Assembly (NCBI GenBank): GCA_016783555.1
Contig: JADHWH010000001.1
Span: 16,913-80,912, forward strand
Length of the DNA stretch: 64,000 nucleotides
Source of the DNA: Candidatus Omnitrophota bacterium
Lineage (GTDB): Bacteria; Omnitrophota; Gorgyraeia; JABMRJ01
Direction: 5' to 3'
This document shows positions 1,442 through 61,484 of the stretch, piece after piece. Both the position numbers and the translations under genes were made by a program. The notes below the pieces were generated by a model, which worked only from the letters and a program-made list of their open reading frames with translations, searched no databases and had not been told where the DNA came from. Numbering within the stretch: the stretch's first letter is position 1; the number at the start of each line of letters is the position of its first letter.

Positions 1442-2097
1442 AATCGCCCCTTATATAAAAGGTTGGCTATAAGCTCTTTATCAAAAGGCCTTGAAGGAGA
1501 TCTCCGTTCCGGATGCCACTGAATACCGACAATAGGCTTTTTGGGATGATAGAACCCTTCGACTACGCCTTTGGGACTCGTGGCGAAGACCTTAAATTGA
1601 TTTGAAACCGATTCCTGAAGAATTCCGTGATTATGGAAACTGTTAACCTTCATCTTGTCCGTCTTTATCAGTCTCTTAAACGGCGTATCTTCTGCTAAAT
1701 CCAGCTTATGGATAGCGCGCACATGATTCTCTTTCCTTGCCTTGCGGATGCCTCTCTTCAGGGTCCCGCCGAATAGAATATTCAATATCTGCATGCCGCG
1801 GCATACGCCCAGGATAGGTAGATTACACCCCAGTGAATATTTGACGATTCGCTCTTCAGTCTTATCGCGCCTCGGGAATTCGCCCCAGTCGCTTCCATTT
1901 GAAAGGATAACGCCGCCTATCTTTAGACCCTTCAACGTATCGATGACCGAATCGGGCTCGTTGACGAGAGGAACTAAGATGGCGTCTGGTAGAATCTCTC
2001 TTATATACTCTTCCCAGTCCTTGCTCAGGGCATCCCTCTCTTCGGAATAACCTTCATTCCGGATAACCCTCATCGTAATTCCTATTCGTTTATTCAC
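1438..2097 (-). CDS. Class I glutamine amidotransferase-like / peptidase C26 gamma-glutamyl hydrolase; candidate gamma-glutamyl-CDP-amidate hydrolase (Cj1417c-like)
   Basis: GVCRGMQ contains the catalytic Cys and HPE the His/Glu, giving the C26/PuuD family pattern. The start is revised to GTG 2095-2097 (V-NKRIGIT, a typical C26 N-terminus), which lies inside a junction element. The MNPVRPHEGSTGRR extension in the ORF track is a read-through artefact. Confidence 0.7.
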   Translation of the reverse strand: MNKRIGITMRVIRNEGYSEERDALSKDWEEYIREILPDAILVPLVNEPDSVIDTLKGLKIGGVILSNGSDWGEFPRRDKTEERIVKYSLGCNLPILGVCRGMQILNILFGGTLKRGIRKARKENHVRAIHKLDLAEDTPFKRLIKTDKMKVNSFHNHGILQESVSNQFKVFATSPKGVVEGFYHPKKPIVGIQWHPERRSPSRPFDKELIANLLYKGRL

Positions 2098-2160
2098 CCC
2101 GTTAGACCTCTCCATCATCCTTCGACCCGTTGACCCCTCATGAGGTCTAACGGGGTTCAT
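2095..2160 (-). repeat. Junction palindrome element, copy A
   Basis: CACCCCGTTAGACCTC...GAGGTCTAACGGGGTTCAT. The loop holds a degenerate third arm. On the mRNA, GGAGAGG-9nt-GTG gives the start of the downstream C26 hydrolase. Confidence 0.85.
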
Positions 2161-2163
2161 AAT

Positions 2164-4569
2164 CTACATCTCTATCGGTTCTATTCTTCTTTCGGAACAA
2201 TTAAGTTCAATGGCCCCCGAACGCAGTATATTGTCGAATATCTGCTCGCCGCAGCCTATGGCAGCGGGCAGACCAAATTCAGCGCAGCGGATTGCCATAT
2301 GAGAATTTGCTCCTCCGAATTTAGTAACGAGCCCCGATATGGGGCGCGAAAATATCCAGTCAAAACCAGGATCGGCATTCTCTATCAAAACAATCCGCTC
2401 TTCGATATCCGGCACGTTATCGTCTTTTCCTTCGATAAATACGTAAGGGGCCCTCACTATCTTCTGCGTAATAAAGTTCGGTTTATTCAAGAAGAGCGGA
2501 ACGATCGATATATCTTCAGGTCTCTCTATAATGTACGGCAGGCGTATCGATAACGTAGTTTCGTGGTTCTCCTGCCCGCGCAAAATAAGATCGCGTAAAT
2601 TCTTCTTTAAATCTTCACCCTGCGGCAGCCTGGCGGCATTTAGGATATCTTCTATATCTAAATATGAAAGCTCCTCTCTCTGGAATCCTAACGCCTTGCC
2701 CCATGATGCGATAATCTCAAGGGCGTCGCTTATATTCCTGGTAAATACAAATTTAGCATATTCCCGCGCGCTTATTGCATCTCTTATGTAGCTTAAGAAA
2801 CGTTCGGGGTCGATGTCATATTTGAACTCTTCTAAAAACGATTCTATCTTTTTTAACTTGCTTGATGAGAAGCAAAATTCATTATCGGTATCTAATTCAA
2901 CCGGCGGCCGCAGGGTCTTCTTCAATAGGTCTTCATGCTGATCGTATCTTTTGGATAAGATATTATATGTCCCCGGCCGGAGGTGGCCGTATCTTGACAT
3001 AAAGGACCGCATATCTATCTTCTTCTTTACTAAATTATCTATATCAAACACCAGACTGCTTGCAACCGTCTTTATAGACCTTTCAAAGCGCGCCGCTTCC
3101 GAAACGTCAAGGACTCCGCGCCTGATTAAAGAGCGCATAAAACTCTTTGCTATAAATGCGTGTCTCGCCAATTTGGCAAACGGGATCGTTCCCAGCTTTA
3201 TGCAATCATCGAGCAGGCTTCTGACGCATGCCAAGGCGGCCCTATCATCACGTTTGAGCAAACCATCCCTTCTCACTCGAAGCTCTTCAATCTTCTTCAA
3301 CTCGCCGCTTAAAGAGGCGGCCTTTCCGGTTAGGAGATTATTCGTAAGATTAAATAGGGCCTTTCTGAAAGCCCTCTTTTCATCATGGGTCAATACATTA
3401 GGAATCTGTTCATCCACAGAACTATCGAAATCGAACGCTAAGGCGGTTATGGCTACGTCAAATTCTATTTTATCGTGGAGCGATTTATTACTCGACAGGC
3501 GCTCCAACCAGCTATCCACTAACTTGTCGCAGATATCCGGACGCAGGCCTTCGGGCAAAAAGGAATTAAGGCTCAGGCGCACATCAATATATGGCTTGCC
3601 GGATAAAGAGACCATAAGAGATATCTCTTTGGGTTCGTTATACCCCATCTCTCTCCTTGCCTGGCGCCATGCGTAATCCGTAATAAGATAACGGTAGAGA
3701 GAAAGGGCGAGCGGCCGCGGAGAAGTCCCTATCATCTCGGCGGGGTTCCAATCCGGCATCTTACCTAAGATGGTCCTCTTGCCGTAGAGGGTCTCTTCTT
3801 TTTTATTGTAATCGTTAAAAAACGACTTCATAGATTTAATTGCATTATCGACCTTGATCTTAACTCCGGTCTTCCAGTTAGGCTGCGTGGCTATCTTCCG
3901 CACTTGAAATATATGAACTGTATTCTTTTCATCCACGGCAAATTCTATATCGAGCGAATCGCTTCCAGTTATCTTCTCTATCTCCTGAACCGATCCAAGC
4001 AATGCCTTAAAACGTTCTGACCTTAGGTCGCTTGCTGCATCACGATGGACGAGTAGAGTCCTATTGCTATTCTCTCTTCCTGCAGTCACTGTATCGGTAC
4101 GCCCTGTCTGATCATCATATGTTATAACGTAATACGGCGCTCCGGTGTTTAAATCCTGGGTAAAGAGAACGCCGCTCATCGAGACCTTATCGACCATCAG
4201 TTGAATCAATACATGATTTGCCGTATTATCGGCGTAAAAGGGCTCTCTATTATAACTATGGATGACGCGGTCTATTCCTTTACAAAGTATATCCCTCTCA
4301 TATGCAAATACATCCGGAACCGAATCATGAAAACCCGCCATAGATGAGACCTCGGTGTCTTCGCAGGCAGCGCTGGAACGTATGATAATCTTCTCTCTGC
4401 CAAAAAGGGAACTTGTCTCATCCAAAATAGCCTCGGCGTACGCCTGCCACCTATCTACATTAAAGTAATAAAATTTCGGAATAGACGATAATGAAAGCAG
4501 CGGCGCTAGGAACTCAAGCGTCTCTGCCTTTGTACCAAATTTAAATTCTCTTTCGTTTAAGGCCTTCAT
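2164..4569 (-). CDS. PEP-utilising-enzyme family three-domain kinase (PPDK/PEP-synthase-like); candidate L-glutamine kinase (Cj1418c-like)
   Basis: The 801-aa protein has an N-terminal PPDK-type nucleotide-binding region. Its C-terminal GGANSHMAIRCAEFGLPAAIGCGE is a phosphohistidine mobile-domain motif. It is the first gene of the cj1418c-like cassette. Confidence 0.7.
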   Translation of the reverse strand: MKALNEREFKFGTKAETLEFLAPLLSLSSIPKFYYFNVDRWQAYAEAILDETSSLFGREKIIIRSSAACEDTEVSSMAGFHDSVPDVFAYERDILCKGIDRVIHSYNREPFYADNTANHVLIQLMVDKVSMSGVLFTQDLNTGAPYYVITYDDQTGRTDTVTAGRENSNRTLLVHRDAASDLRSERFKALLGSVQEIEKITGSDSLDIEFAVDEKNTVHIFQVRKIATQPNWKTGVKIKVDNAIKSMKSFFNDYNKKEETLYGKRTILGKMPDWNPAEMIGTSPRPLALSLYRYLITDYAWRQARREMGYNEPKEISLMVSLSGKPYIDVRLSLNSFLPEGLRPDICDKLVDSWLERLSSNKSLHDKIEFDVAITALAFDFDSSVDEQIPNVLTHDEKRAFRKALFNLTNNLLTGKAASLSGELKKIEELRVRRDGLLKRDDRAALACVRSLLDDCIKLGTIPFAKLARHAFIAKSFMRSLIRRGVLDVSEAARFERSIKTVASSLVFDIDNLVKKKIDMRSFMSRYGHLRPGTYNILSKRYDQHEDLLKKTLRPPVELDTDNEFCFSSSKLKKIESFLEEFKYDIDPERFLSYIRDAISAREYAKFVFTRNISDALEIIASWGKALGFQREELSYLDIEDILNAARLPQGEDLKKNLRDLILRGQENHETTLSIRLPYIIERPEDISIVPLFLNKPNFITQKIVRAPYVFIEGKDDNVPDIEERIVLIENADPGFDWIFSRPISGLVTKFGGANSHMAIRCAEFGLPAAIGCGEQIFDNILRSGAIELNCSERRIEPIEM

Positions 4570-4575
4570 ATTATT

Positions 4576-5304
4576 TCAGCATATCTTTCGGCGTTGGTCC
4601 TTTCTCATTAAAAATTCTGCAAATTTAAAATCGGTTTCGTCATCTATATCAATAGACCTTTCTTTAGGCATTACATATATAGCCGTCTTTTTGGATATAA
4701 TCGTATTTTCGCCGAATAGCGCCTCTCTTCTGGTTGCATATATAGCGCCGTTCGGCACATAGATATCCTCTAGATACCTCCTCAGCGTCCTCTTGCCTCT
4801 CAATGTACCGGAAAAACATAACTCGGCCCTTCTATCTTTCTTCAGTCTAAACATCCATTCTGGCGGCACCTCTGTCGCTTTTGCCGAAAAGGCTGATTGA
4901 ATGCCCTTATCCCTTATCAACATCTCTATGCATCTATCGATATCTTCAGAGTTTGCCAGCGGGGAAGTCGGCTGAAGCGTAACGGCTATATCTATCCTCC
5001 TCTTCTCTCTTGACTCGAGGAATCTCACTGCATGTTGAATAACCAGCGTGGAAGAACAACTGCCCGATATCTCCTTAGGGCGTTTAAAGGGGACCTCTGC
5101 GCCATATCTTAATGAGACCTTTTTTATCTCTGGATGGTCTGTTGAAATTATTATCCTTCTTAAGTACCTACTCATCTGTGCGGCTTTTATAACATAAGCT
5201 ATGAGAGGCCTTCCGTTCAAACCCTTAAGATTCTTTAAAGGTACTCTCTTAGAACCGCCTCTCGCGGATATTATGCCTATAATATTATAAGTATTTTTCA
5301 CCAT
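4576..5304 (-). CDS. Acylneuraminate cytidylyltransferase family (CMP-nonulosonic acid synthetase)
   Basis: IIGIISARGGSKRVPLKNL is the NeuA/LegF/PseF-type CTP_transf_3 motif. This is one of three such genes in the locus. Confidence 0.75.
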   Translation of the reverse strand: MVKNTYNIIGIISARGGSKRVPLKNLKGLNGRPLIAYVIKAAQMSRYLRRIIISTDHPEIKKVSLRYGAEVPFKRPKEISGSCSSTLVIQHAVRFLESREKRRIDIAVTLQPTSPLANSEDIDRCIEMLIRDKGIQSAFSAKATEVPPEWMFRLKKDRRAELCFSGTLRGKRTLRRYLEDIYVPNGAIYATRREALFGENTIISKKTAIYVMPKERSIDIDDETDFKFAEFLMRKDQRRKIC

Positions 5305-5310
5305 CTCTCC

Positions 5311-6789
5311 TTATCTTTTATGCAGGCTTTCTATTAAAGACGGATATAATATATCTGCCTCTCTCTCTTTAGAACCTATCTCTTTCTGATCAAAATCTAC
5401 CGACGAAGCTTTTATTGCGGCAAGAAACCTTAAGCCCTCTTGCGTACGTCTATTTTTGGCCTCCGCTCTACCATCCCCTGCACACAATCTGTGTAAAAGC
5501 GGGCGCAATTCTCTCCATGAACTGACCACATGCACATGGGGAAGAAAATTAAAGACATTATGGGCGCCGAATGAGATAACCGGTATGCCCGATATAGCGG
5601 CCTCTACGCCTAAGGTACTTGTGATTACCGCGACGCCGCGTGATGACTTTGCTATTCTCAGGGCATTCTCTAAGGGCGACACCATAACTACATTAGGTAT
5701 ATCCTGAATAGTCTTGTAAAAATCCCCCGGTCTTCTTCCAATGGCCAGGAGATGTTCTTTGACAGCGAGTAACGCGCCGGCAGGAAGGTTCTTGGCCATA
5801 AATTCTATGGCTGCCAGCTGCTCATTGAACTCGGGACTAAATGTACCTACGGCCATCTCCGGTTCCGTATGCAATGGATAGAAGATATACGGTTTGTCAG
5901 ATAGCTCATCTAAGCTTGCGGTCTTTAAGTTCTTCATAACCTTAGATCCTTTATGGGCCCTGTAGAGATACTTTATATTCTCAGATAACCGATAGCCGCC
6001 CATGCTGACGACCTTCTTATATCTCTTATACAGGTATGATCTTATCTGGAGTATTATTTCTTTCAACAATGTAACCTTGGAAGACTTCTTTAAAAACCTT
6101 TGGTAAACACCCTTGATATACGACTCCTCTATCGGACCATTGAGGTCCTCTTCGTCGACGAATTCATCTATATTTTTAATATCCGCGAAATTCTTCTTTA
6201 CCTCTGGGGAGGAATAGTATTCATCGACAACCCAATAATGGCGCGATCTGTATTTAGCGCCGTTAAATATGCGCACGGGGATGCTTCTATGCCTTGCAAC
6301 GGCCATAAATATCTTGCCTATTATTCCTACCTGCAAACCTATCACTAAGTCGGGTTTAGTCTTATCCAGATAATCCTCCCAAAATTTAAATATCTTGTTG
6401 AATATATTTACCGATTTTATATAGCTTGCCTTATCGCTTAAATGCGACCTTGGGTGGCCTGTTCCAGCGGCGGAAAAACCACGCCCTAAGTGCCTATCGG
6501 TCTGGAGGGCATCGACTGCATATACGTTATACCTATCCTCGTAATATCGAGCCTTATCATAAATATCTTGAGCCGCTTCCTGGCATCTGTCATACTCGTT
6601 GAAAAAATGGTTTATTGTCACATATGTATCTATCACACCTTCACGATCTAGGCCTCTCCAATATTCCACGCTCTGGGGGCTGCTGCATATAAAATGGATC
6701 TTAACATTCTCTCTCGCCTTAAGCTCTTTTAAAAATGGTATATGGAGCCAATAATATACCGCAAATCCCCATACAACTACGTTTTCCAC
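5311..6789 (-). CDS. Capsule-polysaccharide-biosynthesis family protein (KpsS/KpsC/LpsZ-like); putative CMP-sugar-dependent glycosyltransferase
   Basis: PYIFYPLHTEPE and GVAVITSTLGVEAAISGIPVISFG resemble Capsule_synth motifs. The start is revised to GTG 6787-6789, inside a junction element. Confidence 0.45.
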   Translation of the reverse strand: MENVVVWGFAVYYWLHIPFLKELKARENVKIHFICSSPQSVEYWRGLDREGVIDTYVTINHFFNEYDRCQEAAQDIYDKARYYEDRYNVYAVDALQTDRHLGRGFSAAGTGHPRSHLSDKASYIKSVNIFNKIFKFWEDYLDKTKPDLVIGLQVGIIGKIFMAVARHRSIPVRIFNGAKYRSRHYWVVDEYYSSPEVKKNFADIKNIDEFVDEEDLNGPIEESYIKGVYQRFLKKSSKVTLLKEIILQIRSYLYKRYKKVVSMGGYRLSENIKYLYRAHKGSKVMKNLKTASLDELSDKPYIFYPLHTEPEMAVGTFSPEFNEQLAAIEFMAKNLPAGALLAVKEHLLAIGRRPGDFYKTIQDIPNVVMVSPLENALRIAKSSRGVAVITSTLGVEAAISGIPVISFGAHNVFNFLPHVHVVSSWRELRPLLHRLCAGDGRAEAKNRRTQEGLRFLAAIKASSVDFDQKEIGSKEREADILYPSLIESLHKR

Positions 6790-6842
6790 CCCGTTAGACC
6801 TCCTCACCCCATTGACCTCTCATGAGGTCTAACGGGGTCCAT
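6787..6842 (-). repeat. Junction palindrome element, copy B
   Basis: The same arms, with a third arm CACCCCATTGACCTC in the loop. GAGGAGG-9nt-GTG gives the start of the KpsS-like gene. Confidence 0.85.
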
Positions 6843-7807: not shown

Positions 7808-7808
7808 A

Positions 7809-10340: not shown

Positions 10341-11555
10341 TCATGGCCTTATTTCACCTATATTGTCAAATATTTTTTTAACTGCGCTTACGATATCCTT
10401 CATGTCTTCTATATTATATGGGTAGTGCATGGCCGTTATACATATCAACCTGCGGCAGACATCTTCAGCAACTCTGCATTTAATACCTCCAAAGCCGGCT
10501 TCTTTTAATTTCTCCTTGAATATGGGTGTCTTATATAGAGGTTGAGGGTATCCGCGTGAGAGCGTTATCCCTTCGGATTCCATAAGCTCTATAAATCTAT
10601 CCTTCGCGACGCCTATCTCTCTCTCATTATATAAAATGGGATATAGATGAGAAATCTCACCTTCTTTGTATCTCATAACCTCAAGCCCGCTGAATCTACC
10701 CAATTCTTTCTGGAGGTAAGAGACGTTCTTTCTTCTTATCTCGTTTAATGAGTCGAGCTTCTTTAACTGTTCTATGCCGAGCGCCGCGTGTATCTCGGTC
10801 ATCCTGAAGTTATACCCTAATATATTTGAGATATACTCTCTCGGCCTCCCCTTGGTCCAGACCTCACCGTGATTTCGTATAAGGCGGCACCTATCGGCAA
10901 TCTCATCCGAATTCGTCGTCACCATCCCGCCTTCGCCTATAACCATATTCTTTGTCTCGACAAAGCTGAATACCCCAGCGTCGCCTATCGAGCCGACCAT
11001 GCGGCCTTCGTGCTTACAACCGGGCGACTGGCACGCGTCTTCTATTACCTTAAGGCTATCTTCTTTTGCTATAGCCAAAATCTCGTCCATATTGCATACC
11101 TTGCCGTAGATATGGACCGGGACTATTGCCTTGGTCTTTTTGGTTATGGCCGCTTTAATCTTCTTAGGATCTATACAAAATGTATCCGGTTCAATATCCG
11201 CAAAGACGGTAGCCGCACCTACCATCAACACTGAAGAAGCAGTAGCGGTAAAGGTAAACGGCGGCACTATCACTTCGTCTCCGGGGCCGATATTGCAAGC
11301 GGCGAGGGCCGCGTGGAGCGCCGATGTGCCAGAATTGAATACTATCGCATATCGGGTTCCTATATATTTTGCAAAATCTTTTTCAAACTTCTGTACCATC
11401 TCACCGCCGAGGAAATCCTTATAAAATCCAGATAGACTCTTCTTTCTTAGAACCTTATTTACAGAAGCTATCTCTTCATCTCCGATTGGCGCGGAATAAT
11501 CAAACCTTTTCTCCCGGGTCTTTTTGCCGCCATGAATAAATAATCTCTCTTTCAC
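10341..11555 (-). CDS. DegT/DnrJ/EryC1/StrS family PLP-dependent sugar aminotransferase
   Basis: The sequence is DegT-family throughout (GTSALHAAL...FSF...NFRMTEIHAALG). The GTG start at 11553-11555 is supplied by a junction element. Confidence 0.8.
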   Translation of the reverse strand: MKERLFIHGGKKTREKRFDYSAPIGDEEIASVNKVLRKKSLSGFYKDFLGGEMVQKFEKDFAKYIGTRYAIVFNSGTSALHAALAACNIGPGDEVIVPPFTFTATASSVLMVGAATVFADIEPDTFCIDPKKIKAAITKKTKAIVPVHIYGKVCNMDEILAIAKEDSLKVIEDACQSPGCKHEGRMVGSIGDAGVFSFVETKNMVIGEGGMVTTNSDEIADRCRLIRNHGEVWTKGRPREYISNILGYNFRMTEIHAALGIEQLKKLDSLNEIRRKNVSYLQKELGRFSGLEVMRYKEGEISHLYPILYNEREIGVAKDRFIELMESEGITLSRGYPQPLYKTPIFKEKLKEAGFGGIKCRVAEDVCRRLICITAMHYPYNIEDMKDIVSAVKKIFDNIGEIRP

Positions 11556-11616
11556 CCCGTTAGACCTCCCTATCTATTTTCCCCATCAGCCTCTTATGAG
11601 GTCTAACGGGGTTCAT
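11553..11616 (-). repeat. Junction palindrome element, copy C
   Basis: It carries the upstream oxidoreductase TGA stop and the downstream aminotransferase GTG start, with GGGAGG as the SD. Confidence 0.85.
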
Positions 11617-12674: not shown

Positions 12675-13876
12675 ATCCTTTTGCCTCTCCTCCTATTCTT
12701 TACGGGTAATTCAAAATCCAAATCAAGGAACCTCTTCTTTGAGGTAATGTTGTCAAGCCCTCTTACTATGCCAACAATCTTCCTCGACGTACTCCCGTCT
12801 CCATAAGGGTTTATTATTTCTTTACAGGTCTTTCTAAAATCGCTGGAGAGGGCCTTTCTAAATGCCCTCTTCAAAGACCCTCGTCCTTCCTTCACATCAA
12901 TGACAGTGTCGGCTCTGACCCTGCCTCTCTGTCTATCGCCGATATTTATCGTGGGTATCCCAAATGACGGCGCCTCGATTATGCCGCTCGATGAATTGCC
13001 TGCTACCACGTCCATATGAAAGAGTGTGTTTAGATAGAGCTGGCGGCCCATCGATGAAAAAGATTTGGCGCTCTCTCTATTATTATAAATGTACATATCT
13101 ATCATCTTTTCAATCGTGTCGTAGTAGATATCTACGTTCGGTTTCGTAAATATAACCTTCGCGTCTTTCAATAGAGCCAAGGCGTCTAAGAGGCCTTTAA
13201 ATTCGCTTACCGTCTTATCTCTGCTCTCTTGCGTAGACGGATTATATGTCACCATTATATTATTCTTACCTAATCTAAAATCTATCCTTTTTTCAAGTTC
13301 ATTCTTCTTTAAAGGTTTTATTCTCTTTATGTTGTCGAGCCCCAGCGCGCCTACATTGAATACTCTCTTGGGCTCTTCGCCCATCTGTATAACCCTCTTT
13401 CTATATATATCAGTCGATACAAAATGGAGGTGTGATATCTTTGTTATGGCATGCCTAAGAGAGTCATCCATTGAGCCCTCCGTAAGCTCCCCGCCATGTA
13501 TATGGGCGATGGGAACTTTAAGAAAGAATGCCGCTTGCGCAGCCGTGAATGTCTCGAACCTATCCCCCAATAAAAATAGAAGCTCTGGCCTTAATATATT
13601 CAAGACGTCCGTAAGCCTTGTGACCCCGATGCCTACCGTCTTTGCTATAGCCTCCTCTCTATCTTCCTCAAGGGGCATGGCAATTTTTGCGTCTATCTCG
13701 AAACCGTCATCTTCTATCTCCTTATAGGTTAAACCGGACTCAGGCATCAGGTGTCCTGCCGTTGCTACCAATTTAAGGTCTAATCTTCTATCCTTCTTTA
13801 TCTGGCTTGCCAGCGGATATAACAAGCCCCATTCTGCCCTGCTCCCTGTTATGATACAAACCTTCTTTTTCTTCAC
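12671..13876 (-). CDS. UDP/GDP-N-acetylglucosamine 2-epimerase (hydrolysing), NeuC/LegG-like
   Basis: KKVCIITGSRAEWGLLYPL is the NeuC N-terminal signature. The start is revised to GTG 13874-13876 inside a junction element, whereas the ORF track begins at 13894. Confidence 0.8.
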   Translation of the reverse strand: MKKKKVCIITGSRAEWGLLYPLASQIKKDRRLDLKLVATAGHLMPESGLTYKEIEDDGFEIDAKIAMPLEEDREEAIAKTVGIGVTRLTDVLNILRPELLFLLGDRFETFTAAQAAFFLKVPIAHIHGGELTEGSMDDSLRHAITKISHLHFVSTDIYRKRVIQMGEEPKRVFNVGALGLDNIKRIKPLKKNELEKRIDFRLGKNNIMVTYNPSTQESRDKTVSEFKGLLDALALLKDAKVIFTKPNVDIYYDTIEKMIDMYIYNNRESAKSFSSMGRQLYLNTLFHMDVVAGNSSSGIIEAPSFGIPTINIGDRQRGRVRADTVIDVKEGRGSLKRAFRKALSSDFRKTCKEIINPYGDGSTSRKIVGIVRGLDNITSKKRFLDLDFELPVKNRRRGKRI

Positions 13877-13929
13877 CCCGTTAGACCTCCTCACCCCGTT
13901 GACCTCTCATGAGGTCTAACGGGGTTCAT
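13874..13929 (-). repeat. Junction palindrome element, copy D
   Basis: It carries the NeuD-NeuB TGA stop and the NeuC-like GTG start, with GAGGAGG as the SD. The loop holds a third arm CACCCCGTTGACCTC. Confidence 0.85.
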
Positions 13930-17645: not shown

Positions 17646-19167
17646 CTTTTCTCCTTGCCTTAACAAAATAGAATGATGAAAAGAATTTATAGAGGTCGTA
17701 TTGAGCAAATTTTATTTCAACATCGAAATATTTCCCCCATAACTCCTCTAATATATTTTTTTCCGGCACATATATCATTATCCCACGCATCGTGGGATCC
17801 GGATGTAGCGGCGTAATCTCATAGTAAGAGCTGCCTAAAGGTCTTGCCCATTGTAAGTATCCATGCCTGGGAGATAGGTATCCGATAAAGATCTCTCCTC
17901 TGCTCTTTAGGACTCTTTTGGTTTCATCTATAAAATCTCTCTGATTCGGCATGTAGCTTCCTGCCTTCTCGCTTATAATAACGTCGAACGTCTTATCCTT
18001 ATACGGAAAACGGCCCTTTTCAAATCTATCAAGATGCATGCTTTCCGCTTTAGCCAATCTTTCGGCTGCCTTTTTCGTTTCTTCTATAACAATGTTAGAA
18101 CCTGAAACGCCATAGGGGATATAATCCATGTCCAAAGCCATCATTAAATTCGTAATATTAAGCGGCATGATTTCAAGGACTTTTTGGCCATCTCCGCTTA
18201 TTTCGTTTTCCTTTCCGATATTTACATAAAAACTGTTTGTAGGTCTTCTTCTCGTTGCCAGAAATCGTATGAGGTGTTCATTTGGATATTTATTTCCCGG
18301 CATAACTCCATCTTTATACATAAGTCTATATTTTCTGTCCCATAATTCTCTATTCTTATCTTGGGCAACTTCTTTGTTGATATTACTCTCCTTTGCCCTT
18401 AAGGGCTTTTGCAAAAAAGGAGCCGTTGTAAAATTAATTCGGGGCTTTGTAAAGGGCCTCTTTTTACCTATAAGATACTGCCAGGACATAAATATAGGCT
18501 CAAGGTCAAATTCCTCCAATCCTACTTCAATATCGAAATATCTTCCGTATATATCCTCAAACTGCACTTTCGATTTAAACAAGAAAAGTTCAAGTCCTTT
18601 AAGCCTCGGATTAGGGTGGTCCTCTTTAAACTTCACTACTGAACCAGGTTGGTCGTCTATATAATTCATATATCCATGGCGCGGTGAGAAAAAAGAGAAA
18701 AATATCCACCCCCCAAGCTTCAAAACCCTCTGGCACTCCTTTGCAAAGACTTCCTGGTCTATGTTGTAATAGACGCATTGGAGCCCCACGATTATGTCAA
18801 AAGATTCATCTTCTACAGGGAGCCTATTTCCGCTGAATACATCCACACTTAAACTGCTTTCCAGATTCTTTTTCTTTATAGCGCCTCTTGCCCTCTCTAC
18901 TGCATCCTGTGATACCTCAAGCCCCAATACTTTATATCCGCAGTCTTGCATCATGAGCATATTCGCAATTGTGCCGAAACCGAGTTCCAATATTCTTTTT
19001 CTTTTCTTGCTGCCTTTCTTGGAAATCCTGTTTATAAATCTCACTAAGTGCTCATTAGGGTACCTGACACCCGGCATATCGCTCGCCTTCTGATATCCCC
19101 TGTAATAGTCATCCCATACGGCGTTATTAAGCTCTATCTTTTTATCAATCAAGCTGCTTCTATCCAT
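17629..19167 (-). CDS. Tandem-duplicated class I SAM-dependent methyltransferase (two MT domains in one polypeptide)
   Basis: The protein is an internal repeat. RYPNEHLVRF...LELGFG...LKLGGWIFFSFFSPRHGYM is followed by KYPNEHLIRF...GEIFIGYLSPRHGYLQW. Confidence 0.65.
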   Translation of the reverse strand: MDRSSLIDKKIELNNAVWDDYYRGYQKASDMPGVRYPNEHLVRFINRISKKGSKKRKRILELGFGTIANMLMMQDCGYKVLGLEVSQDAVERARGAIKKKNLESSLSVDVFSGNRLPVEDESFDIIVGLQCVYYNIDQEVFAKECQRVLKLGGWIFFSFFSPRHGYMNYIDDQPGSVVKFKEDHPNPRLKGLELFLFKSKVQFEDIYGRYFDIEVGLEEFDLEPIFMSWQYLIGKKRPFTKPRINFTTAPFLQKPLRAKESNINKEVAQDKNRELWDRKYRLMYKDGVMPGNKYPNEHLIRFLATRRRPTNSFYVNIGKENEISGDGQKVLEIMPLNITNLMMALDMDYIPYGVSGSNIVIEETKKAAERLAKAESMHLDRFEKGRFPYKDKTFDVIISEKAGSYMPNQRDFIDETKRVLKSRGEIFIGYLSPRHGYLQWARPLGSSYYEITPLHPDPTMRGIMIYVPEKNILEELWGKYFDVEIKFAQYDLYKFFSSFYFVKARRKDADAK

Positions 19168-21001
19168 TTACACTTGCCTTCAAAACATTCATGCCTTCTT
19201 TGAGCACCGCCTTATTCCATATTTCTAACGAAAGGAGCATCCAGATAAGCGTTGAATATTTCTTTTTGCCGCTATAGTGCAAATTAATGATCTCCTTAAC
19301 AACGGAATAATTCAATTCTGACTTAGAGATGGAAGACGTAGAACTTGTGAGGTCATTAATAAGCTCTTGGGCTTCGCTTGTGTTAATCCAATAAGCTATA
19401 TCGGAAGGAGAACCCAGTTTTTTTCTCTCTATAATTTGGTCATGGACTTTGTCCTTTGACAATCTTTTTATAATATACTTTGGGATATTATCCTTATATT
19501 TTATGCCGCTATCTATTCTGTTTGCAAACTCAATTATATTGTGATCTAAAAAAGGCACCCTTACTTCCACTCCGCAAGCCATGGACATGCGATCCATTCG
19601 CATCAAGACTGATTGTAGTCTGAATCTTATGCTGTGGAACATCATGCGCATTTTTAGCTCCAGGTCATTGTGAAATTCAAGCCACTTATAAGATTCAATC
19701 TCTTTTACCCGCCTTTTGTCTATTCCGGTCAGGCGTTGGGCAATAGATAAATTATTTATTCCGCCTCCAAAATAGATCATATCATTTTCAGAAAAACCGT
19801 CGAAACTTCCCATCTCCAAATCGCACAGCGTTCTCTCAAAGCGTTCATATCCGAAGAATAGCTCGTCACTCCCGTCGCCTATCAAAAGCACCTTCATGCC
19901 CTCCTCTCCGGCATGGCGGCACATATCGTAAATAAATCCCGAAGAGTGGAATTGGAGCGGTTCGTCGTAAATATACGTAAGGTAAGAAAAGTATTCCAAG
20001 AATCTCGTGCTGTCTAAAAGCGCCGATTCAAAATCTATCTTTCTGCCGAACTTTTTATTCAGAAACTCAACTTGCATTTCTGCATATGGTGATTCGTCGA
20101 TTTCGCTCGTTACGTTCTTGGCATTAAAAAACTTAACTTTTTTAGCATTTGCATGGGTACTCTTTGCAACATAATACGAAACAAGCGAAGAGTCGATACC
20201 GCCGCTTAAGAGAATGCCTATCGGCACATCGCTTATCAGTCTATAGTCGACAGACTCCTTAAACTTCTCATCTAGGCAAGATAATATCTCTTCCTCATCA
20301 TCCATAATAGATGACGTCCCAACTAGCGACACCATATCCCAATATCTCTTTATCGATATTTTGCCGGAGGTATCCACGCTAAGATAATGGGCGGGTTCCA
20401 TCTCTGAAACACCTTCAAACATCGTATTCTTACCGAATACACCATTGGTTGTGACATATTCAAAGAGACATTCCTTGCGAAGCCTCTTTGGGATAATGCC
20501 GTTTGTTGTCATTGCCTTTATTTCGGACGCAAAAATCATAAAGCCTCTTTGCAGCGAATAATACAAAGGCTTGATACCTATTCTGTCTCTTGCTAAAAAT
20601 AACTTATTAACCCTTTTGTCCCATATAGAGAATGCAAACATGCCGTTAAAAAGAGATAAAGCTTTCTCAATACCGTATTCCTCGTAGGCATGGATTATAA
20701 CCTCGGAATCACAGCGCGAACGGAATATGTGTCCTCTTACAAGCAGGTTCTCCCTCAATTCATTATGGTTGTAGACCTCACCGTTAAATATCAAAACCAC
20801 GTTACCATCCTCATTGAATATGGGCTGCGATCCCTTCTCTACATCTATAATGCTTAATCTTGTATGGCCCAAAGATACCCATTCATCCTTATAGGCGCCG
20901 CTATTATCGGGCCCTCTATGGCTAAGCAGCTTTGTAGCCGTTTCTATATCGAAAATATTGTTATTTTTATTAAAAGATAAAAAACCTACTATTCCACACA
21001 T
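19160..21001 (-). CDS. Asparagine synthetase B-family glutamine amidotransferase (PseA/WbpS-like sugar amidotransferase)
   Basis: MCGIVGF is the N-terminal Cys class-II glutaminase motif. An AsnB synthetase domain (SGGIDSS PP-loop) follows. Confidence 0.8.
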   Translation of the reverse strand: MCGIVGFLSFNKNNNIFDIETATKLLSHRGPDNSGAYKDEWVSLGHTRLSIIDVEKGSQPIFNEDGNVVLIFNGEVYNHNELRENLLVRGHIFRSRCDSEVIIHAYEEYGIEKALSLFNGMFAFSIWDKRVNKLFLARDRIGIKPLYYSLQRGFMIFASEIKAMTTNGIIPKRLRKECLFEYVTTNGVFGKNTMFEGVSEMEPAHYLSVDTSGKISIKRYWDMVSLVGTSSIMDDEEEILSCLDEKFKESVDYRLISDVPIGILLSGGIDSSLVSYYVAKSTHANAKKVKFFNAKNVTSEIDESPYAEMQVEFLNKKFGRKIDFESALLDSTRFLEYFSYLTYIYDEPLQFHSSGFIYDMCRHAGEEGMKVLLIGDGSDELFFGYERFERTLCDLEMGSFDGFSENDMIYFGGGINNLSIAQRLTGIDKRRVKEIESYKWLEFHNDLELKMRMMFHSIRFRLQSVLMRMDRMSMACGVEVRVPFLDHNIIEFANRIDSGIKYKDNIPKYIIKRLSKDKVHDQIIERKKLGSPSDIAYWINTSEAQELINDLTSSTSSISKSELNYSVVKEIINLHYSGKKKYSTLIWMLLSLEIWNKAVLKEGMNVLKASVNG

Positions 21002-21004
21002 AGT

Positions 21005-21562
21005 CTATTTTTCCTTCTTAAGTCTTTCATAACGGTCTCGCGTTATAGATACTTGAACGATGTCTTTGTATTTACCGTCTACAAAACGGGCCTGCGAAAA
21101 GATACCCTCTCTCTTCATTCCAACCTTTCCGCAACTCTTAATAGCACCCATATTGTCTGCTACTATCGCATTATATATGCGGTTTAAATTCAATGTATTG
21201 AATGCATAGTCTATAACGAGTTTTAGAGCCTCGGTTCCATAGCCTTTACCGCGATATTTCTTATCGCCTATCATGCGCCCGCAATGTGCTGTTCGGTTTA
21301 CCCAATCTATCCCCCCGATTTTTATATTTCCGATATACTTATCGTTTTTCTTGACTATAATAGCGAAGATTACATCATTATTTGAATTTGTAACCTTCTC
21401 ATAATAACCCCAAAGTTTATCCCGTGATGTGGGAAAAATCCCACTCATAAGGAACCTATTGGTCTCGGGGTCGTTAATCCAACCCAAGTACCCCTTTTCA
21501 AGGTCGTCTGGATTAAGCGATCTTAAGTATACCCTTTTACCGATAATAAACGGACATTCCAT
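21005..21562 (-). CDS. GNAT family N-acetyltransferase
   Basis: RimL-like GNAT motifs. The likely start is MECPFIIGKRVYL, and the ORF track's longer extension was dropped. Confidence 0.65.
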   Translation of the reverse strand: MECPFIIGKRVYLRSLNPDDLEKGYLGWINDPETNRFLMSGIFPTSRDKLWGYYEKVTNSNNDVIFAIIVKKNDKYIGNIKIGGIDWVNRTAHCGRMIGDKKYRGKGYGTEALKLVIDYAFNTLNLNRIYNAIVADNMGAIKSCGKVGMKREGIFSQARFVDGKYKDIVQVSITRDRYERLKKEK

Positions 21563-21617
21563 ATATCCTCCTCTTCTAGCGTTAAGGGAAGAACCTTTAA
21601 AAAAAACCGTGTACATT

Positions 21618-22709: not shown

Positions 22710-22722
22710 TTACCCCCCCAGC

Positions 22723-25943: not shown

Positions 25944-25947
25944 AGAT

Positions 25948-39932: not shown

Positions 39933-40025
39933 TATAGCCTCCGCAGGACAATATCTTATATCACAATTCTTTTATTGTCAACTAGACAGGCACGTAAGGA
40001 TAATTTGCTTGCCCCCCTGAAGATT

Positions 40026-41696
40026 ATGTTGTATTATTTAGACATGGAAGACAAAAAAAAGAGATGCCTACTAACCTGGCCCCCATTTATTACTGCCCAT
40101 AATCTGCCGTTAGGGATACCGTCTCTTGTTAGCTATCTAAAGAATAATGGGATTGATAATACAGAAGTCATTGATTTAAATACGGCTTATTTAAGAAAAA
40201 TAAGGTTTTTCTGGTTCTTATATTTATTAAACAAACGATATCATAACCTTGTGGGGAAGATAAAAAATAAAAATACTAAAGATATAAAAAGGGGGTCTCC
40301 TGGCACGATAAAAAAAGATAACCCATTCTGGAAAAAGAAAATTTTATATTTTTATAGTTATTTAAATAGAAAGATAAACGCACTGCTCAATTATAGAAAA
40401 GTGGGGAATAGAAAAAAAAGATCTATACCGTGGTCGTTGGAATCGATTGTAAAGTTTGATTTTGGAGATAGATATATAAATGAGAGCAAAAAGATATATC
40501 AAATTCTAAATCCCCTCATTAAGAAAGACGCGTTTTCTCTAATAGGCATATCCTGTATTTACCCCCAACAGCTATTCTATGCCTTTATAATTGCGAAAGT
40601 GATAAAGATGAGGATTGACAAAGATGTGCAGATAGTCCTCGGAGGCACGCAAATAACAAAGCATATAGATCACATCATAAATAGCGAAGGGCCTTACGAT
40701 TTTGTCGATTTCTTTATCACCGACGACGGTGAAGAGCCGCTCATCAAGCTATTAAAAGAATTCCCGGAAAAAGATCTTTCAGATATCCCTAATCTATATT
40801 TTAAACCCCGAGGCGAGGCAGAGAGTTATAAAAAATCGAAAGTGACCTTTCGCCTTGCCCCAAAAGACTTCCTAACGCCTGATTTTAGAGGTTTTGATTT
40901 AGATATCCACAGAAATCAGATACCGCTGCTGGCCTCAAAAGGGTGTTTCTGGGCCAAGTGCAATTTCTGCACCTACGCAGGCATGCAAGATTGCACGTAT
41001 TCAATAAGTTCAGCGGAAAAGACGCTTGGAATTATAAAGGAGTTAAAAAAGGTATATGGCGTTTCAAACTATCGTTTTGTCGACGACGCATTACCACCAA
41101 GATTTATGGAGCGATTGGCCCACGCTCTTTCAAAAGATAGACTCAATATAAAATGGGCGAGCAGTATAATATTAAGCAAAGAATTTGCCGATCAGGATTT
41201 TTGCAAGACCCTAAAGAGCTCTGGCCTATCCCAGGTTTCTATAGGGCTCGAATCCATCTCACCTCGTATCTTAATTCTGATGAATAAGTGCCATAAGAAT
41301 TTGAGTGAATCTGAAATTAAAGTGATCCTGGCCAATCTTAAGGGTGCGGGTATAGATGTCGGTCTTCACATCATCTTTGGCTTTCCTACCGAAACAGTTG
41401 ATGAGGCCCGTAAGACGGTTAATTTTTTAATTGAAAATAAGGCCTTATATGACACATGCATGTTTCAGCCTTTCTGCCTGGAGGATGATACCCCCGTATT
41501 TAATAATCCAGAAAAATTTGCGATTACAAAGATTCATATGGGAGATAAAGATTCCGGAGAGAGATTAGGATACCGCTATGAAGTTGCTAGAGGCATGAAT
41601 CAGGAAGAAGCAAAAAAATTCACCTATGGAGAAGCAGCTTATGCCTTTAAAAAAGCGCGGGTGAGCGCAATAAGCTCAGAGGCAAACTTATATTAA
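40026..41696 (+). CDS. B12-binding-domain radical SAM protein (class B)
   Basis: ASKGCFWAKCNFCTY Cys cluster. This is the only plus-strand gene. The start was moved from 39975 to ATG 40026, with 40044 also possible, because a TTGTCA-N-TAATTT promoter-like sequence overlaps 39975-40010. Confidence 0.65.
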   Translation: MLYYLDMEDKKKRCLLTWPPFITAHNLPLGIPSLVSYLKNNGIDNTEVIDLNTAYLRKIRFFWFLYLLNKRYHNLVGKIKNKNTKDIKRGSPGTIKKDNPFWKKKILYFYSYLNRKINALLNYRKVGNRKKRSIPWSLESIVKFDFGDRYINESKKIYQILNPLIKKDAFSLIGISCIYPQQLFYAFIIAKVIKMRIDKDVQIVLGGTQITKHIDHIINSEGPYDFVDFFITDDGEEPLIKLLKEFPEKDLSDIPNLYFKPRGEAESYKKSKVTFRLAPKDFLTPDFRGFDLDIHRNQIPLLASKGCFWAKCNFCTYAGMQDCTYSISSAEKTLGIIKELKKVYGVSNYRFVDDALPPRFMERLAHALSKDRLNIKWASSIILSKEFADQDFCKTLKSSGLSQVSIGLESISPRILILMNKCHKNLSESEIKVILANLKGAGIDVGLHIIFGFPTETVDEARKTVNFLIENKALYDTCMFQPFCLEDDTPVFNNPEKFAITKIHMGDKDSGERLGYRYEVARGMNQEEAKKFTYGEAAYAFKKARVSAISSEANLY

Positions 41697-57244: not shown

Positions 57245-57300
57245 GAAAAAAATTCGTTAAAATTCAACACCGGTTTAATCCTGATAATTTTGGTTTTCAC

Positions 57301-58017
57301 TTAACTCTTCAAATCATGAGTCAATATTATTGCCTCCGCCACCTCGCGCATGGTCTTACGCGCGTTCATGGCGTACTTCCGGATCTTAAGATACGCTTCC
57401 TCTTCGCTGAGGTTCTTATTCTTCATCAGGATGCCCTTGGCGCGTTCGATCTTCTTCCGCGCCTCCAGCTCCTCCCGGATCACTCTGCTCTTTACCATAA
57501 GCTCTGTATTCTCTATGGCGACGGCCGCCTGGTTTGCTATAGAGGTAAGTATATCTTTTTCGGTCTCCGTAAAGAGATGCGTCTTAGGCGTATAGCAGTT
57601 TAAGGCTCCTATTACCTTTCCTTTTACGCTCATCGGAATGCATAGAAGAGACTTTAAACCCTCCTTCTTTGCTATATTCTGATACTTGTACTCTCTCTCT
57701 TTTGTAATATCCTTTACCGCCATGGGTCTATTCTCTCTGGCGACTTTCCCCGCGATACCCTCGCCTATCTTCAAAGGAAGCTTCTTATTATACTCCTCGC
57801 TGACGCTCTGCGTGGCGCGAATTACAAGCTCCTTCTTCTTTTCATCGATAAGCATCAACGAACATATATTGGAACCCATAACCTGGGCGGTAACCGCTAC
57901 TACGAGACGCAGGATATCTTCCAGATATAAGTCCGAGGCTATGGCCTTGCTTATTTCAGAAAGGGCCTTTATCTGCTCTCCATGATGGGGCTTACCTACA
58001 CTCTTTCTCTTCTTCAT
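57301..58017 (-). CDS. GAF + ANTAR domain RNA-binding antitermination regulator
   Basis: The C-terminus IERAKGILMKNKNLSEEEAYLKIRKYAMNARKTMREVAEAII is an ANTAR domain. A GAF-like region precedes it. Confidence 0.7.
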   Translation of the reverse strand: MKKRKSVGKPHHGEQIKALSEISKAIASDLYLEDILRLVVAVTAQVMGSNICSLMLIDEKKKELVIRATQSVSEEYNKKLPLKIGEGIAGKVARENRPMAVKDITKEREYKYQNIAKKEGLKSLLCIPMSVKGKVIGALNCYTPKTHLFTETEKDILTSIANQAAVAIENTELMVKSRVIREELEARKKIERAKGILMKNKNLSEEEAYLKIRKYAMNARKTMREVAEAIILTHDLKS

Positions 58018-58025
58018 ACTTTTTT

Positions 58026-59987: not shown

Positions 59988-59990
59988 AAT

Positions 59991-61433
59991 TTATCCGCTC
60001 TTTATCTTCTTATATAACTCTAAATATCTCTTAGCAGAGGCATCCCATGAGAAGTCGCATCTTAAGCCGTTCTTCTGTAATGCCCTCCAGGTTTTTTTAT
60101 CCCTGAATACCCCTACCGCCCGCCCTATCGCTTTTAACATGGCGTCGCAAGATGCCTCTTTAAATTTAAATCCGTTACCCTTTTTTGTATGCGGATCGAA
60201 ATCCTCTATCGTATCCTTGAGTCCCCCTGTCGCCCTCACTATCGGTATCGTGGCATACCTAAGGCTGTACATCTGATTCAATCCGCAAGGCTCATATCTT
60301 GAAGGCATAAGAAACATATCGCATCCCGCCTCTATCTTGTGGGCAAGGGGATTGTCAAACGCCACCTTTGCGCCTGCCCTGCCTTTATACCTCCTATCAA
60401 AGTCCTTAAAGAGACTATTGTATTTCTCATCCCCGGTGCCGAGTATGACAAAACTTGCGCCTAAATCTAAGAGCCCATCCATACCTTCAACGACCAGGTC
60501 TACGCCTTTCTGTTCGGCAAGTCTGGTTATCATCCCTATGATCGGCCTATCCTCATCAAACTCCAGGCCAAACTCCCCGCACAAATCCTTCTTGCACTCA
60601 AGTTTAGGCCTCAAATCGTCTTTTGTGAAATTCCCTGCTATAAACTTATCCGTCTCGGGATTCCATGTTGAATAATCAGCGCCGTTTAAGATGCCGTAGA
60701 GTGACTCTTTTCTCGTCCTCAGAATACCATCCAGCCCGCATCCGAATTCCGCTGTGAGCACCTCTCTCGCATAGCCTTCGCTTACGGTGCTGACGGCTTC
60801 AGAGTATACTATCCCGGATTTTATAAAACTTGCCTTCCCGTAGAATTCGATGCCGTCTTGTGTAAAGGTCCCTTCCGGCAGCTTCAATTCTTCTACCGCC
60901 TCTTTGCCAAAAAGCCCCTGGTATGCCATATTGTGCACTGCAAATAAGACCTTGATCTTTTTAAAATCTTTTCTCTCTTTATAAATATATCTTAGATAGA
61001 GTGGAATAAGGCCGGTCTGCCAGTCATTGCAATGCAGGATATCGGGCTTGCCTATATAAGGAATAGACTCCAGGACGGCTTTGGAAAAGAAGGCAAACCG
61101 CATCGCGTTATCCCCGTGGTCGCCTTTCGGCGTGCCGTACAGGCCGTCCCTGTCATAAAGAGCGTCATTTCCTATAAAATAGAAGTTGATATTCTTGTAG
61201 CTTAGAGAAGAGAGGTCGAAGCTCAAATCTCTTAAGCCTATCTTAACGGGGATGCCGGACTTAATAAGGTTGGGGGCAAACCCGTTTTGCCGCACCAGCT
61301 TATAAAGCGGCATGATAACGCTGGAATGGGCTTTAAGCTTATTTAACGCCAGAGGCAGGGCCTCGGAGACATCACCCAGACCTCCTGTCTTGGCAAAAGG
61401 CGAAACCTCCGATGAGACAAATATAATATTCAT
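59991..61433 (-). CDS. glgA: Glycogen synthase
   Basis: The true N-terminus MNIIFVSSEVSPFAKTGGLGDV carries the KTGGL motif. Its ATG at 61431-61433 lies in a junction element. The ORF track's MNPVRPFWRD... extension is read-through of that element. Confidence 0.9.
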   Translation of the reverse strand: MNIIFVSSEVSPFAKTGGLGDVSEALPLALNKLKAHSSVIMPLYKLVRQNGFAPNLIKSGIPVKIGLRDLSFDLSSLSYKNINFYFIGNDALYDRDGLYGTPKGDHGDNAMRFAFFSKAVLESIPYIGKPDILHCNDWQTGLIPLYLRYIYKERKDFKKIKVLFAVHNMAYQGLFGKEAVEELKLPEGTFTQDGIEFYGKASFIKSGIVYSEAVSTVSEGYAREVLTAEFGCGLDGILRTRKESLYGILNGADYSTWNPETDKFIAGNFTKDDLRPKLECKKDLCGEFGLEFDEDRPIIGMITRLAEQKGVDLVVEGMDGLLDLGASFVILGTGDEKYNSLFKDFDRRYKGRAGAKVAFDNPLAHKIEAGCDMFLMPSRYEPCGLNQMYSLRYATIPIVRATGGLKDTIEDFDPHTKKGNGFKFKEASCDAMLKAIGRAVGVFRDKKTWRALQKNGLRCDFSWDASAKRYLELYKKIKSG

Positions 61434-61484
61434 CCCGTTAGACCTACTCATAGAATCCCGCCAGAAAGGTCTAACGGGATTCAT
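61431..61484 (-). repeat. Junction palindrome element, copy E (diverged: CATCCC/GGGAT arms)
   Basis: It carries the tal TGA stop and the glgA ATG start. It lies outside the glycan locus, so the family is probably genome-wide. Confidence 0.8.

Follow-up and report, generated by a model that had tools for sequence, protein, structure and literature searches.

The 64,000-nucleotide stretch of DNA analysed here, called the window below, belongs to a Candidatus Omnitrophota bacterium (assembly GCA_016783555.1, contig JADHWH010000001.1, positions 16,913 to 80,912) and raises the question of how five short palindromic elements came to stand exactly between neighbouring genes, each followed at once by the start codon of the downstream gene. 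The first-pass annotation of the window regarded them as translational-coupling hairpins that donate a stop codon on one side and a start codon on the other, and its account did not include the parent element described below, a GIY-YIG mini-gene whose terminal codons are the arms of the palindrome. We consider it quite probable that the five elements are insertions onto host start codons, derived from this GIY-YIG mini-element, with mobility proposed to be provided by the nuclease and with a proposed rescue of host translation.

Palindromic elements at five gene junctions

All five positions were borne out. The copies lie on the minus, coding strand, to which 47 of the 48 long open reading frames (ORFs) of the window belong. 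The 14-mer arm CCCCGTTAGACCTC occurs 10 times in the window with at most two mismatches, while 0.31 occurrences are expected from shuffled sequences. The copies are given here with their neighbouring genes, the names of which were confirmed by Pfam, and with the two copies of the 4-bp target, TGAA or TGGA, that flank each of them.

Copy A, 2097..2155, minus strand: 59 nt without an ORF, between a PPDK-like gene and a peptidase C26-GATase gene; left target copy TGAA 2156-2159, after A2160 (the old ATG), right target copy TGAA 2093-2096, new GTG 2097-2095.
Copy B, 6789..6837, minus strand: 49 nt, between a radical-SAM/SPASM gene and a KpsS-like capsule-synthesis gene; target copies TGGA 6838-6841 and TGGA 6785-6788, new GTG 6789-6787.
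Copy C, 11555..11611, minus strand: 57 nt, between a GFO/IDH/MocA oxidoreductase gene and a DegT-type aminotransferase gene; left target copy TGAA 11612-11615 (oxidoreductase stop TGA 11615-11613), right target copy TGAA 11551-11554, new GTG 11555-11553.
Copy D, 13876..13924, minus strand: 49 nt, between NeuD-NeuB and NeuC, with an inner arm copy (arm') at 13894-13905; left target copy TGAA 13925-13928 (NeuB stop 13928-13926), right target copy TGAA 13872-13875, new GTG 13876-13874.
Copy E, 61433..61479, minus strand: 47 nt, between tal and glgA, with the terminal pair T..A; left target copy TGAA 61480-61483 (tal stop 61483-61481), right target copy TGAA 61429-61432, new ATG 61433-61431.

The element ends are terminal inverted repeats, YCCCGTTAGACCT...AGGTCTAACGGGR, and the inverted arms are perfect in all five copies, as had been described, although over 14-15 bp and not 15-16 bp, the 14-bp arms being those of copy E. 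The codon right after the 3' arm, GTG in four copies and ATG in one, opens ORFs of 219-492 codons. In copy E it is the NCBI start of GlgA (P0001, 480 amino acids), in copy D it is that of NeuC (P0121, 401 amino acids), and at four junctions the post-arm starts match the N-termini of orthologs in alignments, which sustains the earlier view that the 3' end of the element places a Shine-Dalgarno sequence, GGAGG, 9 nt before the start in use. In a metagenome gene call of the same gene (locus L128, 7089-7119), GlgA starts at an ATG inside the loop of copy E and has 486 instead of the 480 amino acids of the NCBI protein. The TGA in the 5' flank is the stop codon of the upstream gene in three of the five copies (C, D and E), but it is not embedded in every copy, since copy B has ATGGAC there; the upstream genes of copies A and B do stop earlier, at 3 and 8 nt before the flank ATG and not at the 4-8 nt first given. 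In copies A and E an ORF is open from the old ATG across the entire element. The loops of copies B and D differ by a single base, and this near identity points to a probable recent burst in the lineage of the window. No known RNA family was found in an Rfam scan of the window.

Empty sites in relatives

Copy E and copies B-D were compared with the orthologous junctions of relatives, for which the DNA around close homologues of GlgA and NeuC was retrieved. Four of the five window sites are free of the element in relatives with 84% and ~70% protein identity and show an uninterrupted ATGAA, ATGAG or GTGAA. The site of copy E is empty in locus L136 (GlgA 84% identical), where AAAAGATGAATATTATAC is found, that is ...AAAAG ATGAAT ATTATAC..., with the TGA of tal overlapping the ATG of glgA, while the filled site in the window reads ...ACCAG ATGAA[TCCCG...CGGGA TGAA]T ATTATAT...; in L139 (GlgA 69% identical) the junction is a GTGA overlap and holds no element. 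The site of copy D is empty in L140 (85%; GATATGAGAAAA) and in L141/L142 (69%; GATATGAAGAAG), each time with a 4-nt overlap. In L141/L142 the site of copy C is also empty, with a 4-nt stop/start overlap (AAAATGAGAGAAAAA; the junction is also written AAAATGAGAGAA), and at the site of copy B both L140 and L141/L142 have ATG...GAAAAT and no element. Furthermore, no arms were found in the 28 kb and 44 kb of orthologous DNA around these sites in the relatives.

Judged from these alignments, the five copies are shown to be insertions with terminal inverted repeats and a 4-bp duplication, not hairpins that evolved locally. A coupling hairpin formed in place and kept with its junction does not agree with the absence of the element from the orthologous junctions. 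The empty sites also mean that the stop and the ATG of the left flank are the host's own junction, a duplicate of which provides the TG of the new start, so the supposed donation of both codons by the element reduces to the first base of the start and the GGAGG only.

Distribution of the family and target-site duplication

In a scan of species-representative genomes, paired arms were detected at 30 loci, nearly all of them in metagenome-assembled genomes (MAGs) of Candidatus Omnitrophota from ~15 species, and a metagenome scan gave ~80 further loci with paired arms. After unrelated palindromes had been discarded, the family set contained 93 copies on ~70 metagenomic and MAG contigs, mostly of Omnitrophota. 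The flanks of the family are conserved and non-palindromic, with (A)TGAA on the left side and TGAA on the right. In 71 of the 93 copies the same 4-mer stands on both flanks, and the rare variants co-vary, namely TGAG/TGAG in eight copies, TGGA/TGGA (including copy B of the window), TGCG, TAAA and CTTA. Moreover, the outermost base pair of the element co-varies, being C..G in 67 and T..A in 17 of the 93 copies, and it determines whether the downstream start is GTG or ATG.

There are also sub-families (L017 7257-7323, L034 6076-6126 and L060 5078-5137, with further copies at L121 4407-4466, L074 4237-4287 and L080 11474-11524), in which CCCGTTAGA...TCTAACGGG is kept and the inner arm bases are altered on both sides (AGAAAT/ATTTCT, AGAAGT/ACTTCT, AGAGAT/ATCTCT or ACATCT/AGATGT), so that the AGG of the ribosome-binding site is lost from the arm. 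Tandem double elements occur at L006 2609-2732, L034 6076-6193, L114 1888-2050 and L126 2615-2730; in such back-to-back pairs the second element is inserted in the TGAA/start codon regenerated by the first, which means that the rebuilt start is still a target. Among viral contigs the sole match, L166 328-367 (IMG/VR), is a longer perfect hairpin (CCCGTTAGACCACCATA...TATGGTGGTCTAACGGG) without ATGAA flanks, just past a terminator-like stem, and the viral contigs searched hold no full-length element.

A parent element of 272 bp encoding a GIY-YIG protein

A 0.3-kb long form with the same arms and flanks was met in L103 during the search for unpaired arms. This parent element is 272 bp long, and its sole ORF, of 91 amino acids, is in frame with the left start codon; in L103 PF01541 (GIY-YIG) is the only domain of the product (E = 9e-14). 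A database search yielded 877 clusters of ~91-amino-acid proteins from Omnitrophica and Planctomycetota MAGs, nearly all of which start with M[NS]PVRP and end with GGLTG. These termini are encoded by the arms. The 5' end of the ORF, ATG AAC CCC GTT AGA CCT, consists of the 5' flank and the 5' arm (codons 2-6 giving NPVRP), and its 3' end, GGA GGT CTA ACG GGG TGA, consists of the 3' arm and the duplicated target, the last codons giving GGLTG. Thus the parent ORF brings neither a start nor a stop codon with it, the host ATG being used at the start and the duplicated TGA at the end. Full-length copies with shared ends and flanks are present in L103, L143, L149, L157, L160 and L163, and the parent was seen in five independent gene contexts (GIY, the GIY-YIG ORF):

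Context 1: MNT / GIY / HEPN
Context 2: MNT / GIY / HepT
Context 3: PIG-L / GIY / NeuC-like epimerase
Context 4: rotamase .. GIY / RcpC
Context 5: GIY / NusA

In all five contexts the TGA of the parent shares 4 nt with the start of the downstream host gene, in three the start of the parent overlaps the stop of the upstream gene too, and the ends always read ATGAA/YCCCG...CGGGR/TGAA (slashes mark the limits of the element). The long and the short forms are linked by L114, where an intermediate deletion form of 110 nt retains the N- and C-terminal coding parts and stands beside a still shorter copy with a loop reading ...KNCLKG.... The short copies have their ends, flanks and orientation in common with the 272-bp form. 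At the level of sequence, this series shows the window copies to be non-autonomous deletion derivatives of the GIY-YIG mini-gene element.

The protein has conserved residues of the catalytic type (two Tyr, Arg, His and Glu), and the terminal PVRP and GLTG are among its most conserved columns; the termini are predicted to be unstructured in an AlphaFold2 model (predicted local distance difference test, pLDDT, 88). Identity at third codon positions is 0.70-0.87 in the arms and 0.47 in the ORF interior; the far stronger conservation of the arms at these positions shows that the DNA sequence itself is constrained. The predicted structure is of the GIY-YIG fold, with Slx1 and the UPF0213 protein BH0048 as closest structures, and the nearest PDB sequences are likewise UPF0213 BH0048 (E = 6e-5) and SLX1. 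The parent protein is a predicted single-domain GIY-YIG nuclease of the Slx1/UPF0213-like branch. In an earlier survey, stand-alone prokaryotic Slx1-like domains were treated as vertically inherited repair proteins (PMC1564403).

Two further GIY-YIG ORFs lack the arms. The gene at L114 2613-2880, 59% identical, lies right after an ORF that on visual inspection resembles a truncated four-helix bundle, and it has the appearance of a further insertion, due to a related nuclease gene. The ORF at L008 2946-3194 (minus strand) is distant (34% identical) and lies immediately upstream of a stretch that on visual inspection resembles a tRNA gene, on a contig that also bears a non-canonical short element.

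Start codons as the insertion target

Among the 93 copies, 73 have ATG or GTG directly after the 3' arm and an ORF of at least 60 codons. The left flank has the consensus A-T-G-A-A (7.3 bits), preceded at 9-13 nt by a purine-rich stretch, and the reconstructed target is thus an ordinary start codon with its ribosome-binding site. For the 73 copies a start codon on the right was a condition of selection, and ~89% of their left flanks hold a start codon as well. The left codon is ATG in 68 and GTG in 4 copies, a mix that resembles ordinary start-codon usage, while the right codon is GTG in 58 and ATG in 18 copies, its identity being set by the last base of the element. An NTGA overlap is found at only 26 of the 73 copies; the upstream gene ends 1-55 nt earlier in 33, and a close upstream gene is absent in 14. 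The start codon and not the stop codon is therefore the common denominator. Checked against the flanking codons, the placement of the copies proposed by the first-pass annotation holds for the start (73/93) and fails for the stop (26/73), so that stop donation is not a trait of the family. The orientation is fixed, with arm' the same way round in 68 of the 73 copies.

With the elements removed, the window has 187 ATGAA, of which 164 are in coding sequence, 12 are non-coding and 11 are on start codons; elements occupy 5 of these 11 start codons. From a target preference for ATGAA together with purifying selection, the share expected at start codons in the window is ~48%. The observed share is ~80% or more, against about half predicted, which makes a further bias or benefit likely.

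Hairpins, the inner arm and translation

Nearly all short copies share a layout of 5' arm, short loop, arm' (often followed by TGA), A-rich spacer, GG and perfect 3' arm. As had been predicted, the arms form very stable hairpins that sequester the start site: for the five window copies the outer 5'arm:3'arm RNA hairpin has -27 to -33 kcal/mol (copy A -32.9), with z-scores of -4.0 to -6.0, and it takes up GAGG and the initial base of the start codon in its pairing. The GG before the 3' arm, which completes GGAGG, is present in 57 of 93 copies, while the complementary CC after the 5' arm is present in 4 of 93. The inner arm, arm', is a degenerate duplicate of the 3' arm; it had been noticed in copies A, B and D only, yet it is seen in all five and in 68 of the 73 copies of the subset. 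It allows an alternative 5'arm:arm' hairpin of -19 to -25 kcal/mol, mutually exclusive with the outer one. Compared with the 3' arm, arm' has 57 changes of A>G or C>T, which keep the pairing with the 5' arm as G-U/G-T wobbles, and only 8 pair-breaking changes of G>A or T>C, though G/T sites outnumber A/C sites. This asymmetry indicates selection for pairing on the sense strand only, either in mRNA or in single-stranded DNA. We favour arm' as a decoy that keeps the new ribosome-binding site open; the data agree just as well with a nuclease that recognises it in single-stranded DNA, in the manner of the Ssn proteins discussed below. In the 68 copies that retain the left start codon, the mini-ORF running from the old ATG was traced: it ends with TAA in the 3' arm in 20, with TGA overlapping the new start in 16, and continues in frame into the gene in 8. 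It is plausible that the hairpin acts as a translational coupler.

Proposed mechanism and alternative explanations

The element has inserted between A and TGAA of a host start codon, with duplication of the 4-bp target. The left target copy retains the old start codon, together with the upstream TGA stop where the genes overlapped, and the right target copy with the last base of the element (G or A) gives the host gene a new start, GTG or ATG. We propose that the GIY-YIG protein would be the mobility enzyme; by analogy with Ssn, it may recognise the hairpin of the arms in single-stranded DNA and make its cut next to this hairpin. On the level of mRNA, the new ribosome-binding site would be masked by the perfect 5'arm:3'arm hairpin; it could be opened by ribosomes that reach the end of the upstream gene or that translate the remnant mini-ORF beginning at the old start, and arm' would compete for the 5' arm so that the new ribosome-binding site stays accessible. 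As a result, expression of the host gene would survive the insertion. More tentatively, and with a little less confidence than doubt, we suggest that this is a new class of prokaryotic transposable element, whose sole protein would be a 91-amino-acid Slx1/Ssn-like GIY-YIG nuclease, whose repeats would be the terminal codons of that protein and whose target would be ATGAA. Such an element would have no start, stop, promoter or ribosome-binding site of its own, taking the start signals of the host and giving back a rebuilt start, and the short hairpins would be its miniature inverted-repeat transposable elements (MITEs), tuned by the decoy arm.

Other explanations have to be considered. The hairpins could be regulatory devices of the host, coupling or riboregulatory, that are selected at operon junctions, with mobility only as their historical origin. 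The very stable hairpins that sequester Shine-Dalgarno sequence and start codon would agree with this, as would the strand-specific pairing constraint on the alternative arm' hairpin, the retention of GGAGG on the start side only, and the smaller number of loops with a stop in the frame of the old ATG (24/68, against 40/68 and 45/68 in the other two frames). Nevertheless, we think such a role unlikely to account for the elements, because the same junctions are element-free in the relatives (84%, ~70%), where plain NTGA overlaps suffice, the downstream genes are functionally unrelated, the nearly identical loops of B and D within one genome speak for recent spread and not long maintenance, and there are sub-families without GGAGG in the arm. 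An ordinary transposase encoded elsewhere, for example a DDE enzyme making 4-bp duplications at CC-terminal repeats, might instead move both forms, with the GIY-YIG gene as cargo. Terminal inverted repeats with a fixed target duplication are the classic DDE signature and are present here with 4-bp duplications; moreover, to our knowledge none of the GIY-YIG enzymes acts as a transposase, and searching the literature for the term returned nothing. However, ~0.9 Mb of loci contained no transposase gene or long-range arm pair, nor did the window, no full-length insertion sequence with the same arms was found among the unpaired arms across these loci, and an ORF that in hundreds of variants keeps its catalytic residues and spans exactly the borrowed ATG, both arms and the duplicated TGA is hard to explain as cargo. 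Hence we regard a separate transposase as rather improbable.

GIY-YIG enzymes are classic homing endonucleases, and the parent could be a free-standing one that spreads by double-strand-break repair between alleles, the short hairpins being decayed copies. A weak NCBIfam match to a group I intron endonuclease family and the placement of the genes between host genes, like the seg genes of phages, are in line with homing, but it is very improbable, since the protein is a single 91-amino-acid domain with no DNA-binding module, its nearest structures are Slx1 and UPF0213 and not I-TevI, and many non-homologous genes are hit per genome, with target duplications and inverted terminal repeats that are not products of homing. 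We give still less credence, hardly any in fact, to repetitive extragenic palindromic (REP) elements that depend on a RAYT (Y1) transposase or to attC-like sites of integrons. The copies do share with these that they are short, multi-copy, extragenic palindromes, and their arms hold GTTAGAC and GTCTAAC, core words of attC. Yet the 4-bp duplication is unlike both REPs and attC sites, there is no GTAG head and the protein is a GIY-YIG one; the attC words are in reverse order (GTTRRRY...RYYYAAC) in a single box without an R/L pair, and the DNA between copies consists of 2-5-kb blocks of housekeeping or glycan genes, not of cassettes. Three other candidates were examined and rejected. A resemblance of GGGGTCTGACG to the Tn3-like end GGTCTAACGGGG has the wrong orientation relative to the element end; the only plus-strand gene of the window (39975-41696), tried as a transposase, encodes a radical SAM protein according to Pfam; and programmed ribosomal bypass between the matching TGAA as take-off and landing sites was dropped, since each of the flanking ORFs is a distinct conserved protein that has a stop and a start of its own.

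Several points weigh against the interpretation as start-codon insertions moved by a GIY-YIG nuclease. No full-length GIY-YIG copy was found in the window or in L128. Characterised GIY-YIG enzymes make short 3' overhangs or single-strand cuts, by which a 4-bp duplication is not obviously explained. The enrichment at start codons may be largely the outcome of the ATGAA target preference and purifying selection. As the family copies were retrieved with patterns demanding perfect 10-12-nt arm cores, the arm conservation among them is partly by construction. As to translation, in 24 of 68 copies a stop codon in the loop ends the mini-ORF 16-45 nt ahead of the new start, and the strand-specific signal of arm' could reflect recognition of single-stranded DNA and not mRNA structure.

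Comparison with known systems

Among known systems, MITEs and the Ssn/SRM hairpin-repeat nucleases come closest, neither of which is reported with start-codon targeting or ORF-embedded repeats. Like Correia elements, RUP and Rickettsia palindromic elements, the copies are short, non-coding and multi-copy, with inverted repeats and a duplication, and MITEs too arise when a longer coding element loses its interior; some affect neighbouring genes, and Rickettsia palindromic elements are tolerated inside genes. The difference is that the parent here is a 272-bp element with GIY-YIG as its only gene and with no recognised transposase (DDE, HUH, serine or tyrosine), and that insertion occurs in fixed orientation on start codons, with ribosome-binding site and start rebuilt. 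With REP/REPIN-RAYT and IS200/IS605 the family has in common a hairpin repeat, a small nuclease, putative single-stranded recognition, repeats that far outnumber the gene, and strand polarity; those systems, however, use the HUH/Y1 fold instead of GIY-YIG, make no duplication and are extragenic. From the earlier designation as a genome-wide REP/MITE-like family, we retain a dispersed, mobile and MITE-like nature, whereas the REP part is given up on account of the 4-bp duplication, the missing GTAG head and the GIY-YIG enzyme.

The Ssn proteins are single-domain GIY-YIG proteins of 94 amino acids that bind the single-stranded DNA of a hairpin repeat and cleave it next to the hairpin; their repeats (NTS/dRS3 of Neisseria; Chenal et al. 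2025) number hundreds per genome and bracket the gene, and the authors noted the layout like that of an insertion sequence, suggested domestication and raised, but did not test, an origin from a mobile element (PMC11893778). The similarities lie in a single-domain GIY-YIG protein of ~91-94 amino acids tied to a multi-copy hairpin inverted repeat, and in a repeat orientation set by non-palindromic flanks. What brackets the gene here, in a layout like that of an insertion sequence, is a single inverted repeat with its two halves; the single-domain protein belongs here to the parent element, which is absent from the window. The wobble-tolerant, strand-specific pairing of arm' is compatible with cleavage of single-stranded DNA as by Ssn and also fits RNA structure. 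In contrast, the repeat halves here are inside the first and last codons of the ORF, while those of Ssn are complete hairpins outside the gene, and a 4-bp duplication, empty sites, placement on start codons and in-ORF repeats are not mentioned in the text of PMC11893778. The published SRM motif HGTCWY..RNCYNB has no match on the five copies, in the whole window or in four full-length elements. The junctions before insertion are ATGA/GTGA overlaps as known from ATGA translational coupling (PMC6728339), and the full-length element recreates such an overlap on both sides; the difference is that a mobile element makes use of these overlaps and doubles them, and that in its short derivatives a hairpin of 45-60 nt lies between stop and start.

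A search of the literature on MITEs at start codons, GIY-YIG transposases and Omnitrophota repeats gave no match, the Ssn paper alone being close. The first-pass annotation was not aware of a described repeat family with this architecture; it had missed the nearest system, Ssn with its hairpin repeats (PMC11893778). If our interpretation is true, this would be a mobile element reduced to one 272-bp gene that lives in operons and hijacks and then rebuilds the host start, a strategy of which no description was found in the literature. The empty sites and duplications would then be direct comparative evidence for the mobility of small GIY-YIG nucleases with hairpin repeats, which for Ssn/SRM was only raised as a question in 2025. 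Furthermore, starts in Omnitrophota and Planctomycetota MAGs would have been shifted to GTG and gene callers misled into starting inside the element, and the nuclease-hairpin pair would be a candidate sequence-specific tool for single-stranded DNA.

Other repeats and base composition

Two unrelated repeats were encountered in the searches. Locus L037, considered as a full-length insertion sequence, was rejected as an unrelated tandem-repeat array with only the GTTAGACCT core in common; its 75-94-nt tandem units on CGCGTTAGACCT/AGGTCTAACGCG palindromes (1-400 and 4290-5303) bracket a gene block of ~4 kb. Another palindromic family, GACGTTAGACCTGA...TCAGGTCTAACGTC with agacctga/tcaggtct flanks, was caught by the relaxed metagenome pattern in L046, L047, L073, L084 and L122 (for example, L046 2400-2461). 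Within the window, positions 18000-26000, inside the nonulosonic-acid/glycan locus, have a GC content of 0.35-0.39 compared with ~0.45 around, which suggests that this low-GC stretch is a horizontally acquired part of the glycan locus.

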